Positions 13,013 through 16,922 of a stretch of DNA of 38,348 nt are shown here, piece after piece. Numbering within the stretch: the stretch's first letter is position 1; each line of letters starts with the position of its first letter. This DNA is from a virus (lineage: Duplodnaviria; Heunggongvirae; Uroviricota; Caudoviricetes): the IMG/VR virus record IMGVR_UViG_2609459797_000003; one strand, written 5' to 3'. The translations under genes were made by a program, and so were the position numbers. The notes under the pieces are model-generated. The model worked only from the letters and a program-made list of their open reading frames with translations. It was not told where the DNA came from and ran no database searches.

Positions 13013-13029
13013 TTTTGTGGAGAAAGTTG

Positions 13030-13401
13030 ATGCGTGATATTCAAATGGTTCTTGAACGTTGGGGTGCATGGGTGGCAAATAATCACGAGGATGTCACTTG
13101 GTCGTCTATTGCTGCAGGATTTAAAGGACTAATCCCTTCAAAAGTAAAATCCCGCCCGCAATGTTGTGACGATGACGCGATGATCATTTGTGGGTGTATG
13201 GCTCGCCTGAAAAAGAACAACAGCGATTTGCACGATTTATTAGTGGATTACTATGTAGGAGGTATGACATTTATGGCGCTTGCCCGTAAACATGGGCGTT
13301 CTGATTGCTGGGTTGGGCGTTTATTGCAAAAAGCGGAAGGAGTAGTTGATGGTATGTTGATAATGCTAGATATTGAATTGGAAATGGAACGTAAAATTTA
13401 G
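13030..13401 (+). CDS. late-gene antiterminator Q (QuuD-type)
   Basis: '[34 protein letters not shown]...[30 protein letters not shown]' matches my recollection of DLP12 QuuD; position immediately upstream of the lysis module. Confidence 0.7.
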
Positions 13402-13630
13402 TTATGTTATGAATAAATAAATGCTAATGATTTTTGTAAGATAGCTCATTTTATGTCCATAGGTGATGTATGCATTAATATGATTAATTTGTCTCCTTAT
13501 AAAAATAAGATTATGTAAATAATAACAAAGGGTGACATTATTAAGTGTTGCTTTTTCTTAGTAAGTTGTTATCCTACTTAAGGTTGAATGATATTGTATC
13601 GAATAAAGTTGCTTATATAGAATTATTTTT

Positions 13631-14158
13631 ATGTTATGGCTTATTGAGTTAGTTAATAGGATGATTGAATCAATGCTTTCAAATGTAATTTTAAGTGGAG
13701 CTATGTCCACGTTATTGGCTGCATTTCTAATTTTTGTGTTTAAGGAGTATATAAAAAGGCCACCTAATTTTTCAGGGGTGTTTGAGATCGAGTGTAAAAC
13801 GCTAAAATCATCATATAATTCATATGTAAACCTAACTACATTCTATACATTAGTGTTGATTTGTGATAATAACACTATAGAAGGACATATTGAAAAAATA
13901 AAAGATATCGAAAATGATGGGAATGAAAGAAAATATATTGGCGTGCATCGCAATATTGGCGATGTCAATGGTGTAATTAAAAGAAATTACTTAAGACCTA
14001 ACCATGCTTCGTTGAATATAAAAATGCATGGTGATAAGAGGGATTATACTATTATGCTATATTTTAAGAAGGTGAATACGAAAAATATGAAAGGAACTTT
14101 TTTATCTACTGCTGCAGATTCTTCTGGAGATGTTAAGTGGCAGCGAAAAAATTTTTAA
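13631..14158 (+). CDS. AT-rich cassette gene 1: membrane-anchored protein of unknown function
   Basis: 175 aa; hydrophobic helix 'VILSGAMSTLLAAFLIFVF' near the N-terminus followed by 'KEYIKRPP'; Lys/Asn-rich low-GC codon usage. Start uncertain (ATG at 13631, 13661 or 13673). Confidence 0.55.
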   Translation: MLWLIELVNRMIESMLSNVILSGAMSTLLAAFLIFVFKEYIKRPPNFSGVFEIECKTLKSSYNSYVNLTTFYTLVLICDNNTIEGHIEKIKDIENDGNERKYIGVHRNIGDVNGVIKRNYLRPNHASLNIKMHGDKRDYTIMLYFKKVNTKNMKGTFLSTAADSSGDVKWQRKNF

Positions 14159-14781
14159 TTTATTTACTGTCGTTGCCATATTTAATAATGGCTTCGATTA
14201 TCATAAAGCTTAAAGTTAAAAGTATAATTGATGATTATGAGAAATGTACTACTTATATTTACTGTAACTCGAAGAAATATAATAACATTTCTCCTGTTAT
14301 GATTGATATATTAAGGTTAGCAGAGGATCATCGACAATTATTGCATAGAGGGATTGACCCCATTGCAATCATTAGAACTTTTTATCTGAGGATATTTAAA
14401 AATATACACCAAGGAGCGAGCACTATAGAACAGCAGTTTGTGAGAACTATAACTAAAAGATACGAAAAAACAATACGTAGAAAGATAAGAGAGCAGATAT
14501 TGGCTATATTGATTAGAAATGTATCAACTCCAGATGATATATGTAAGTGTTATCTTTCTTGTTGTTACTATGGCTATGGAACTTATGGGATAGATAATCT
14601 TTTAAAAAAGAAACAAAATATCAGTGATTTTGATATTGTTGCAATGATTAAATATCCATTCAGGGGAGAAGTTGTTTCAGTTACAGAGGAACGATTTAAA
14701 CATAGGTCGCTCTATCTTTCCACTTTATATAAATTAAATGCACAAAGGGATATGATTTTTTTGCGAAAATATAGTGGGTGA
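14137..14781 (+). CDS. AT-rich cassette gene 2: membrane-anchored GT51 (MtgA-like) peptidoglycan glycosyltransferase homolog
   Basis: GTG start with GGAGA Shine-Dalgarno 6 nt upstream, overlapping gene 1 by 22 nt. N-terminal hydrophobic 'FLIYLLSLPYLIMASIII'; then 'AEDHRQLLHRGID' (EDxxFxxHxG-like), 'GASTIEQQ' (GxSTxTQQ-like) and 'RRKIREQ' (RKxxE), with both candidate catalytic Glu present. Confidence 0.6.
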   Translation: MAAKKFLIYLLSLPYLIMASIIIKLKVKSIIDDYEKCTTYIYCNSKKYNNISPVMIDILRLAEDHRQLLHRGIDPIAIIRTFYLRIFKNIHQGASTIEQQFVRTITKRYEKTIRRKIREQILAILIRNVSTPDDICKCYLSCCYYGYGTYGIDNLLKKKQNISDFDIVAMIKYPFRGEVVSVTEERFKHRSLYLSTLYKLNAQRDMIFLRKYSG

Positions 14782-14978
14782 TTATGTTAAGTGTATTTTA
14801 TTATGTGTCAAAAAGTTTAGTCATCTCTGCTTAATGTATAATCGTGAATGTTTTTATTCAGATTTTATGCATGTCAAGTTGATGAGTGCCGTCGACATAA
14901 GATATGGGGATAATGAATAGTTTACAATCGTAAATAATAGAATATCCTGTTAAAAGTGGTTACTTCTCCACGCAGCTT

Positions 14979-15008
14979 AAACCCGCCGTCGAGCGGGTTT
15001 TGTCGTTT
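14979..15008 (+). terminator. rho-independent terminator between cassette and holin (tR'-like position)
   Basis: 'aaACCCGCcgtcgaGCGGGTtttgtcgtttc': 6-8 bp GC stem, 6-nt loop, U-rich tail. Confidence 0.6.
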
Positions 15009-15152
15009 CTGGGTCTGGGGATTCCTTGGTCCTAGCCTATCCCGCAGTTATCCATTAACTCGGCTTCTTTGACGTTTCCGCTTCTGATTTGCGGTACATG
15101 ATGTTTCCTCAATTTGCACCTGCTGTATCAGCGAGGTGAGAGATAACTACAA

Positions 15153-15482: not shown

Positions 15483-15959
15483 ATGCAGGCACTAAATTCC
15501 CAGCGTAAAGCTTTCCTTGATATGGTGGCATGGTCAGAAGGAACGGAGAACGGGCGACAACCGACACGTAACCACGGTTATGACGTTATTGTTGGTGGTG
15601 AACTGTTTACTGATTACTCCGATCACCCTCGCAAACTTGTCACGCTAAACCCCAAACTCAAATCAACAGCCGCCGGACGTTATCAGCTTCTTTCACGCTG
15701 GTGGGATGCTTACCGTAAGCAGCTTGCTCTGAAAGACTTCTCTCCGAAAAGCCAGGATGCTGTGGCATTGCAGCAGATTAAGGAGCGTGGCGCTTTACCG
15801 ATGATTGATCGCGGTGATATTCGTCAGGCAATTGACCGTTGCAGCAATATCTGGGCTTCACTGCCGGGCGCTGGTTATGGTCAGTTCGAGCATAAGGCTG
15901 ACAGCCTGATTGCAAAATTCAAAGAAGCAGGCGGAACGGTCAGAGAGATTGAGGTATGA
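15483..15959 (+). CDS. endolysin, lambda R-type lytic transglycosylase
   Basis: 158 aa nearly identical over most of its length to lambda R as I recall it ('[55 protein letters not shown]...'). Confidence 0.95.
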
Positions 15960-16417
15960 GCAGAGTAACCGCGATTATTTCCGCTCTGGTTATCTGCATC
16001 ATCGTTTGCTTGTCATGGGCTGTTAATCATTACCGCGATAACGCCATTACCTACAAAGCCCAGCGCGACAAAAATGCCAGAGAACTGAAGCTGGCGAACT
16101 CGACAATTACTGACATGCAGATGCGTCAGCGTGATGTTGCTGCGCTCGATGCAAAATACACGAAGGAGTTAGCTGATGCGAAAGCTGAAAATGATGCTCT
16201 GCGTGATGATGTTGCCGCTGGTCGTCGTCGGTTGCACATCAAAGCAGTCTGTCAGTCAGTGCGTGAAGCCACCACCGCCTCCGGCGTGGATAATGCAGCC
16301 TCCCCCCGACTGGCAGACACCGCTGAACGGGATTATTTCACCCTCAGAGAGAGGCTGATCACTATGCAAAAACAACTGGAAGGAACCCAGAAGTATATTA
16401 ATGAGCAGTGCAGATAG
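15956..16417 (+). CDS. i-spanin Rz
   Basis: 153 aa, N-terminal membrane anchor, coiled-coil periplasmic domain; ATGA overlap with R; Rz1 embedded in +1 frame. Confidence 0.9.
16176..16358 (+). CDS. o-spanin Rz1 (lipoprotein embedded in Rz)
   Basis: '[24 protein letters not shown]...[23 protein letters not shown]': lipobox VVGC and Pro-rich body, as lambda Rz1. Confidence 0.85.
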
Positions 16418-16448: not shown

Positions 16449-16742
16449 TTATTGTGAGCAATACACCCGCGCTTCCAGCGGAGTATAAATGCCTAAAGTA
16501 ATAAAACCGAGCAATCCATTTACGAATGTTTGCTGGGTTTCTGTTTTAACCACATTTTCTGCGCCGCCACAAATTTTGGCTGCATCAACAGTTTTCTCCT
16601 GTCCAATTCCCGAAACGAAGAAATGATGGGTGATGGTTTCCTTTGGTGTTACTGCTGTCGGTTTGTTTCCAACAGTAAACGTCTGTTGAGCACATCCTGT
16701 AATAAGCATTGCCAGAGCGGCAGAAAACAACATTTTTTTCAT
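16449..16742 (-). CDS. bor: Bor lipoprotein (serum-resistance protein)
   Basis: From internal Met 'MKKMLFSAALAMLITGCAQQTFTV...' the 97-aa product closely matches lambda Bor; lipobox ITGC. Confidence 0.9.
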   Translation of the reverse strand: MKKMLFSAALAMLITGCAQQTFTVGNKPTAVTPKETITHHFFVSGIGQEKTVDAAKICGGAENVVKTETQQTFVNGLLGFITLGIYTPLEARVYCSQ

Positions 16743-16922
16743 CTTATTATCCTGCATTGTTAAAAACGGCAGAATCCTATGTGACAACAATTAAACGATA
16801 GTTAAATGGATTGATGAAAATTAAAACTATATAGGTGTACGGTCAGACTATTGGAGGTAGTCAGGATTTGAATGTCAGTCTGTTGTCGGCATTCTGGCAA
16901 TGCAATTTGGATAAAGCGGGGA

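Follow-up and report, generated by a model that had tools for sequence, protein, structure and literature searches.

The two-gene cassette and its setting in the prophage

The window analysed here is a 38,348-nucleotide stretch of DNA of the IMG/VR virus record IMGVR_UViG_2609459797_000003 (Caudoviricetes), which represents an Escherichia coli lambdoid prophage. Two overlapping genes were studied in it, both on the plus strand. Gene 1 (13631..14158, +) encodes a 175-aa membrane-anchored protein with a predicted β-barrel; it is delimited by its ATG open reading frame (ORF), homologues, substitution rates and a structural model. Gene 2 (14137..14781, +) encodes a 214-aa minimal monofunctional homologue of GT51 peptidoglycan glycosyltransferases, as indicated by the Pfam Transgly profile, structures of PBP1a and monofunctional glycosyltransferase (MGT), and RefSeq WP_021564094.1. 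We tentatively interpret the two genes as one horizontally mobile, membrane-associated module, whose most likely role is anti-phage (inter-element) defence.

Upstream of the pair lie genes for RusA, KilA-N, a DUF968/HNH protein and antiterminator Q (13015-13401), and downstream are those for holin, GH24 lysozyme, Rz/Rz1, an iss-type lipoprotein and terminase. The stretch from Q to the holin gene has a GC content of 25-33% (about 30%), compared with about 50% in the flanks, and the ORFs filling it are genes 1 and 2. According to megablast, the whole cassette is present in three of the 5426 complete E. coli genomes. Lambdoid homology resumes at about 14918-14943, and the last 200 bp or so before the holin gene are common to thousands of prophages and to phages such as SfII. 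The low GC content, the rarity and the resumed lambdoid homology suggest that the two genes are an AT-rich accessory cassette ("moron"; 13402..14940, +) inserted after Q, between this gene and the promoter-terminator region that precedes holin S (15153). The right boundary is followed by a terminator-like hairpin (14979-15000) plus a T-run (14979..15010, +), which belong to a lambdoid segment common to SfII, SfIV and other lambdoid phages. By tblastn, no match to gene 1 was obtained in deposited phage genomes.

Gene 1 is maintained by selection and belongs to a large family

The reading frame of gene 1 is called identically by the NCBI pipeline in two 99.9%-identical RefSeq loci, where the product is listed as a 'hypothetical protein' (WP_126709910.1). 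The initial annotation noted that the start is ambiguous, and the alternative ATGs at 13661 and 13673 are indeed present, while there is no Shine-Dalgarno sequence before 13631. Because of an in-frame TAA (13604-13606), no start further upstream than 13631 is possible. A MAFFT alignment of the DNA puts this ATG at the same position as the ATG start codons of six homologues, whose leaders are likewise A/T-rich and have no clear Shine-Dalgarno sequence. Thus, the absence of this signal is a trait of the family and does not testify against gene 1. Gene 1 has a ratio of nonsynonymous to synonymous substitution rates (dN/dS) of 0.09-0.18, and gene 2 one of 0.11-0.26. Judging from its sequence, gene 1 is a real gene under purifying selection.

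It might be supposed that the E. coli copy of gene 1 is an unexpressed or decaying remnant, since its N-terminus, truncated by the in-frame TAA, is 7 aa shorter than that of the 182-aa homologues, its start has no Shine-Dalgarno sequence, and identical DNA has been annotated variously as encoding 151 to 175 aa. This is very improbable: besides the conserved position of the ATG in homologues that do without a Shine-Dalgarno sequence too, the ORF is intact and under purifying selection, the exact protein occurs on 371 contigs, and both the transmembrane helix and the barrel are complete.

An upstream element of about 70 nt (AAGTTGCTTTTT…AAAATGTAACATCATATAAAAAA) is common to homologous cassettes found in unrelated contexts (loci L003, 5900-6000, L023, L029 and L036). 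In the window, its copy is diverged (13540-13630). Judging by sequence conservation, it is probably the cassette's own promoter.

A word-indexed search revealed 15 full-length relatives of gene 1, which are 65-76% identical to it and come from Serratia, Rahnella, Leclercia, Enterobacter and Citrobacter. An exhaustive profile search extended the family to 296 clusters (50% identity) at E<=1e-3, 172 of them at E<=1e-10, with proteins mostly 160-200 aa in length. A genome search with the alignment of close relatives found the gene in only two species-representative genomes. Comparison of 85 diverse relatives revealed four invariant residues (G85, E88, G155 and G166) and six nearly invariant ones (K89, R107, G114, G134, R137 and F157). 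The signature of the family is the loop GxFxSTAADSSG (aa 155-166; 14093..14128, +), which has the form GxFxSTAADSxG across the family and lies between the last two strands of the predicted barrel. The initial annotation could assign no motif to this protein, and database profiles agree with it: gene 1 has no match in Pfam, PHROGs, NCBIfam or PADLOC. A Pfam search gave no hit at E<=10 for 16 close relatives, and at E<=0.01 it detected only the partner domains of fusions among the 85 diverse ones.

Predicted structure of the gene 1 protein

The protein was initially described as having an unknown fold. This description can be replaced, as AlphaFold2 (AF2) confidently predicts two helices and a minimal eight-stranded β-barrel, with a predicted local distance difference test score of 95.4 and values of at least 94.5 in all five models. 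Helix 1 (aa 2-17; 13634..13681, +) is amphipathic or weakly hydrophobic, and its counterpart in the 182-aa homologues is longer and more hydrophobic. The next helix is the transmembrane one (aa 19-37, VILSGAMSTLLAAFLIFVF; 13685..13741, +); its Kyte-Doolittle 19-residue maximum (KD19) is 2.40, in AF2 it spans residues 19-41, and it is followed by KEYIKRPP, just as noted initially, with a C-terminal flank rich in K and R throughout the family. The barrel domain occupies aa 47-172 (13769..14146, +). Based on the model, gene 1 would encode a small inner-membrane protein with one clear transmembrane helix, a preceding helix and a soluble eight-stranded barrel.

The closest natural match of the predicted fold is Cap15. 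Cap15 of CBASS, the antiphage signalling system based on cyclic oligonucleotides, and OptE of Panoptes are S-2TMβ proteins (PF18153), and the minimal barrel that forms their C-terminal part, with eight strands in about 110 aa, is present in the gene 1 model. S-2TMβ barrels are ligand-gated membrane proteins in both systems (PMC12657218). Foldseek of the gene 1 model against the PDB returned nothing at E<=0.001, with Cap15 outside the top 50. No sequence homology is detectable: at E<=10, none of the PDB chains retrieved with the gene 1 family profile was Cap15. Where S-2TMβ proteins have a two-pass N-terminal element, two helices are predicted in gene 1, of which one (aa 19-37) is of transmembrane grade. 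The partners also differ, as gene 1 is accompanied by a GT51 enzyme (or an amidase or protease) and not by a nucleotide second-messenger synthase; no cyclase was found within 5-6 kb on either side of the gene 1 loci examined.

Foldseek also gave a weak match to the periplasmic barrel VtrC (8dml_B, E = 0.12, probability 0.66). Like gene 1, VtrC (of the VtrA/VtrC pair) and ToxS combine an N-terminal transmembrane helix with an eight-stranded ligand-binding barrel and need a co-encoded membrane partner; however, their barrels are periplasmic and paired with transcription factors, whereas the topology signals of gene 1 point the opposite way. Two other candidates were rejected. The profile match to SfiI among PDB sequences has an E-value of 1.7 only and is attributable to chance, and an outer-membrane β-barrel is ruled out by the α-helical anchor, the lack of a signal peptide and the C-terminus WQRKNF, which is unfit as a β-signal.

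Gene 2 encodes a GT51 enzyme with conserved catalytic motifs

The Pfam Transgly profile matches gene 2 with E = 1.6e-23 and 83.4 bits, the cut-off being 27. Profile positions 17-126 of 178 are covered, and the C-terminal third is diverged. The GT51 catalytic core (aa 46-154; 14272..14598, +) was delimited by alignment to PBP1a. Motif 1 reads AEDHRQLLHRG (AEDHR..H.G), with E63 at 14323-14325; it is followed by GASTIEQQ as motif 2 and by RKIRE, which contains E119 (14491-14493), as motif 3. These three correspond to the GT51 patterns EDxxFxxHxG, GxSTITQQ and RKxxE. Motifs 4 and 5 are represented by their Y and R. Across 94 relatives with 32-100% identity to gene 2, residues E63, D64, H70, G72, G93, S95, T96, I97, Q100, R115, K116, E119 and R190 are conserved at 100%, and Q99 and Y139 at 99%. 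Such conservation of the GT51 motifs suggests that catalysis, and not the fold alone, is under selection.

Upstream of the core, there is an N-terminal hydrophobic helix with a conserved central proline (aa 6-24, FLIYLLSLPYLIMASIIIK; 14152..14208, +; KD19 = 2.07). The NCBIfam model mono_pep_trsgly aligns to gene 2 from residue 25. With E. coli MtgA, Staphylococcus aureus MGT and the GT domains of class A penicillin-binding proteins (PBPs), gene 2 has in common Transgly motifs 1-5, both glutamates and the N-terminal helix. It differs from these enzymes in being shorter, AT-rich, mobile, obligately paired with or fused to a barrel, and relatively rich in Cys (mean 1.8% among its relatives); its charge distribution also has no clear N-in signal. 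In a Pseudescherichia metagenome-assembled genome (L030, 6456-6782), the gene 2 ORF is just 108 aa long, which can be explained either by decay or by an assembly error.

Coupling of the two genes, fusions and other partners

The overlap of 22 nt (14137-14158), from which the initial annotation deduced co-expression and a functional complex, is confirmed: gene 2 begins with the GTG at 14137, and the stop of gene 1 is at 14156-14158. The GGAG Shine-Dalgarno sequence of gene 2, read from the sequence, is located inside gene 1 (14126..14129, +), 7 nt before the GTG, and the codons for SSGD of the signature loop double as this signal. The same overlap is repeated in the close homologues L003, L008 and L011, and more distant pairs overlap by 4 to 64 nt.

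A gene 1 family ORF is located directly upstream of a Transgly gene in all 12 distinct loci compared from the clade of the window and its wider relatives, at identities from 100% to about 27%. This order, with an overlap of the two genes, was seen in the window, Enterobacter, Serratia, two more enterobacterial sources, Yersinia, Pectobacterium, Pseudomonas syringae and a metagenome lineage, as well as in viral contigs, Leclercia and an IncF plasmid. The pairwise identities of gene 1 and gene 2 are correlated, with r = 0.986 over 12 pairs. In addition, the barrel and Transgly domains form a single polypeptide in three lineages (P0088, P0154 and P0161). P0154 is a single sequence, while P0088 and P0161 have two members each, found on three contigs each in independent assemblies. 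In a further lineage with 12 members (P0155), the barrel is fused to an Amidase_3 domain. Since P0088, P0161 and the amidase fusion were seen repeatedly, they are not frameshift artefacts. The linkage in 12 of 12 loci, the correlated identities and the recurrent fusions uphold the proposed functional coupling to the GT51 gene, as the hydrophobicity profile upholds the membrane anchor.

Occurrence of the two genes apart from each other in other genomes had been named as a finding that would speak against coupling. This is not observed in the clade of the window and is found only in a distant high-GC sub-clade, where relatives of gene 1 (24-31% identity) have another partner or none. The partner is a lipoprotein with an F5/8-type-C (NADase_transloc) domain in L033 (5630-6484) and a Trypsin_2 protease in L035 (5792-6382), and there is no partner in L031 (5001-5645). 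The barrel is the constant part of the system, and its partners, which are enzymes or proteins that bind the wall, vary among GT51, Amidase_3, Trypsin_2 and the lipoprotein with the F5/8-type-C domain.

Several cassettes have additional neighbours. Upstream of two of them, in an Enterobacter chromosomal islet (L003, 5220-5702) and on an E. coli IncF plasmid (L036, 5502-5972), there is an extra, very basic ORF of 156-160 aa (87% identity), which is absent from the window and the other loci. It was rejected as a third conserved component because only these two loci have it. An HNH-domain protein is encoded directly downstream of the cassette or fusion in two unrelated lineages (L018, 5710-6567, 285 aa; L037, 7252-8775, 507 aa); possibly its gene is a defence gene that neighbours the module, or else it is a third component that is optional.

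Genomic contexts of homologous cassettes

In the window, the cassette occupies the lambdoid Q-S slot. In a Serratia P2-like prophage, it lies between the tail-fibre and sheath genes, a slot that we take to hold P2's own fun(Z) exclusion gene as well. The concept of hotspots has been developed for both P4 and P2, where the P2 hotspot is defined as gpA-gpQ and not as the tail-fibre slot (PMC9122126). At the end of a Yersinia P2/186-like prophage, the cassette is beside the integrase gene, and in viral contigs it is found at prophage ends. One cassette shares its island with genes for a P4-α-like primase, Phd/ParE and AbiEi/AbiEii; another adjoins type I restriction-modification (RM) genes, an HNH protein and ParDE; one more is carried by a conjugative NDM-4 IncF plasmid. 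The island that encodes the fusion P0161 also has genes for two DNA methylases, TrwB, a kinase, a large HNH protein and a GASH-domain protein. Two chromosomal islets, one of them L003, have no telling neighbours. The possibility that the two genes belong functionally to the lysis cassette of this prophage was rejected, since homologous cassettes are found in tail regions, on plasmids and in chromosomal islands away from lysis genes. The distribution over such slots, together with the rarity and patchiness of the cassette, resembles that of defence genes, and we consider a defence role of the module fairly probable.

The same contexts can be read in another way. The module could serve lysogenic conversion or fitness (a robust envelope, tolerance of β-lactams or lysozyme, competition) or be an addiction pair of the toxin-antitoxin kind through which the mobile element is stabilised. 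Fitness and virulence genes such as iss/bor do occupy the same prophage slots, the NDM-4 plasmid is conjugative and islet L003 has no obvious defence neighbours, and the overlap of a potentially toxic enzyme with a small partner gene resembles a toxin-antitoxin layout. Nevertheless, the cassette is found repeatedly next to genes of the RM, Abi, ParE and HNH types and in accessory slots of phages or satellites, and its occurrence is patchy and rare; these observations argue against such a role, and fusion of the two proteins would be unusual for a toxin-antitoxin pair. We regard these possibilities as improbable.

Membrane topology

The initial annotation proposed an N-in anchor with a periplasmic body. 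The charge bias around the transmembrane helix and the variants with two such helices favour the opposite, an N-out anchor (or a hairpin) with a cytoplasmic barrel. In 141 single-helix relatives of gene 1, the mean number of K and R in 15 residues is 0.65 before the transmembrane helix and 2.04 after it; the C-terminal flank is richer in 107 proteins and the N-terminal one in 12. Among 150 representatives, one transmembrane helix is predicted in 126 and two in 15. The additional hydrophobic N-terminal segment of these 15 resembles a signal peptide in some (MKK…, with a Ser/Thr-rich spacer after it) and is part of a tight hairpin of two helices in the others, and both forms would place the barrel on the cytoplasmic side.

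The fusions extend this reasoning to the enzyme. The linker that joins the barrel to the enzyme domain (GT51 or amidase) is not of transmembrane grade (KD19 of 0.62-1.23, as against 2.07 for the N-helix of gene 2), and in the natural fusions the counterpart of that helix is degenerated (KD19 of 0.79-1.23). With no transmembrane segment between them, both soluble domains should be on one side of the membrane. In relatives of gene 2, K and R are more numerous after the N-helix in 58 proteins and before it in 8. Taken together, the charge bias, the two-helix variants and the fusions lacking an intervening helix place the barrel, and hence probably the GT51 domain, on the cytoplasmic face. From these sequence features, a cytoplasmic barrel is likely, and a cytoplasmic GT51 domain is slightly favoured. 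The arrangement with both domains facing the cytoplasm would be self-consistent, although unprecedented for GT51.

The cassette can also be compared with Audmula, a validated GT51-like anti-phage protein of a Lactococcus plasmid (PMC11381338, PMC12184496), which is the sole experimentally validated case of GT51-type phage resistance found in our literature searches. Both systems have a membrane-anchored GT51-like transglycosylase domain on a mobile element. Audmula is a single protein of 392 aa with 4-5 transmembrane helices (PMC11381338), has no β-barrel partner and acts extracellularly in a Gram-positive host. By its description, it is thereby set apart from the cassette, which has two genes with one hydrophobic helix each and an enzyme that leans towards the cytoplasm. 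Audmula thickens the cell wall without abortive infection, and phages escape it through endolysin mutations (PMC12184496).

By analogy, gene 2 might be an N-in periplasmic enzyme that adds or alters glycan strands, so that the sacculus resists tail lysins or endolysins, with gene 1 as an accessory subunit, either an activator or scaffold like LpoA/LpoB or an anchored barrel of the VtrC/ToxS type. The way in which Audmula itself works is in line with this, as are the strict conservation of the GT51 catalytic residues, the resemblance of the gene 2 N-terminus to an MtgA-type signal-anchor ahead of the mono_pep_trsgly alignment, the weak VtrC match, and the Amidase_3 and lectin-like lipoprotein partners, which normally act outside the cytoplasm. 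On the other hand, the charge bias and two-helix variants put the barrel in the cytoplasm, the fusions have no transmembrane segment between the barrel and GT51, the K/R counts of gene 2 relatives (58 vs 8) run against an N-in helix, and the Audmula parallel itself, drawn by description only, concerns a multi-spanning single protein of a Gram-positive host. Remodelling of the wall from the periplasm is, in our opinion, unlikely.

Proposed mode of action

In the mechanism that we propose for the module as a defence system, the barrel protein would be a membrane-anchored sensing or regulatory subunit that binds a small ligand and/or oligomerises, by analogy with the barrels of Cap15 and OptE. 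The GT51 protein would be the executing enzyme, acting on lipid II or peptidoglycan, and its control by the barrel would decide whether wall-precursor metabolism is perturbed upon phage infection. At the cytoplasmic face, the GT51 domain would meet lipid II before flipping. Enzymes with conserved catalytic residues that are swapped around a constant module are usually effectors, which argues for GT51 in this capacity. The assignment of the barrel as regulator and of GT51 as effector is possible, and we make it with reservations.

A more specific version involves abortive infection. A Cap15-like barrel sensor anchored in the inner membrane would restrain a catalytically competent, cytoplasm-facing GT51 (Amidase_3 in sister lineages) and, upon infection, release it onto unflipped lipid II at the inner leaflet. 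If lipid II were polymerised or stripped there, on the wrong membrane side, undecaprenyl phosphate would be sequestered and the synthesis of the wall would collapse ahead of phage maturation. For other immunity effectors, it has been proposed that they attack lipid II that is still unflipped (PMC12419801). In this detailed form, the mechanism is speculative, and we consider it unlikely to be correct as a whole.

The roles might also be reversed, as in Cap15 and OptE. Gene 1 would then be the killer, its barrel gating oligomerisation of the transmembrane helices and thus disruption of the inner membrane, and GT51 would be a sensor or guard of the lipid II or peptidoglycan state, or would make or consume the ligand of the barrel. 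Transmembrane helices with a minimal β-barrel are the effector architecture of S-2TMβ proteins (PMC12657218). The UniRef name of one homologue begins 'SMODS-associating 2TM beta-s…', the conserved charged residues E88, K89, R107 and R137 would fit a ligand pocket, and some distant relatives, for example L031, have no partner. This reversal is weakened by the lack of sequence homology to S-2TMβ, by the absence of a nucleotide cyclase near any locus examined and by the single transmembrane helix of most family members where a two-pass element would be expected. Strictly conserved catalytic residues and the swapping of enzymatic partners also fit effectors better than sensors. For these reasons, we find it rather improbable that gene 1 is the toxic component.

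Several observations weigh against the module as a cytoplasm-facing defence system. Neither protein matches PADLOC-DB v2.0.0 (2023) at E<=1, and literature searches, which included the text and supplements of DefensePredictor, revealed nothing describing the gene pair. L003 and L036, with their common extra upstream gene, are not independent loci. Accessory slots of prophages also carry virulence and fitness genes, and iss itself is 2 kb from the cassette. An N-helix of transmembrane grade is kept in 69 of 86 relatives of gene 2, as in ordinary periplasmic GT51 enzymes, and the high-GC sub-clade of gene 1 looks extracytoplasmic, with Arg-rich N-tails, Cys-rich C-tails and a lipoprotein partner. 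To our knowledge, no characterised GT51 or Amidase_3 enzyme works in the cytoplasm, and all known substrates of their characterised relatives are periplasmic.

Other features of the prophage

The antiterminator Q ORF (13015-13401) is intact in the window and in the sister prophage of strain MINF_1D, while the copy of strain FDAARGOS_1277 is flagged as a pseudogene and has an internal stop. The AT-rich tail of the cassette contains a 48-aa ORF (14774-14920, +) that overlaps with the last part of gene 2. Downstream, a 60-aa proline-rich lipoprotein ORF (16176-16358, +; …VVVGC…) is located out of frame within the Rz gene (15956-16417); this is an Rz1-type o-spanin in the ordinary lambdoid arrangement. 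On the minus strand, positions 16449-16790 encode a Bor/Iss-type lipoprotein (MKKMLFSAALAMLITGC…), which a 99.9%-identical RefSeq locus names 'increased serum survival lipoprotein Iss'. In MINF_1D, a DUF6236 gene replaces this ORF after the lysis genes, indicating a second variable accessory slot.

Significance of the cassette

The cassette is an undescribed combination of two known kinds of component. If its function is anti-phage, it joins the ligand-gated β-barrel membrane proteins represented by Cap15 and OptE with the immunity peptidoglycan glycosyltransferases represented by Audmula, which have so far been separate, and a family of about 300 clusters would gain a testable function. The abortive version, if true, would mean a new effector chemistry in bacterial immunity and the first GT51 enzyme acting in the cytoplasm. 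The module is small (1.15 kb), originates from E. coli and has clear catalytic residues, which makes it readily tractable experimentally. All this raises the question of whether GT51 or Amidase_3 enzymes can be turned against lipid II on the cytoplasmic face, which bears on cell-wall biology, antibiotic targets and phage defence.

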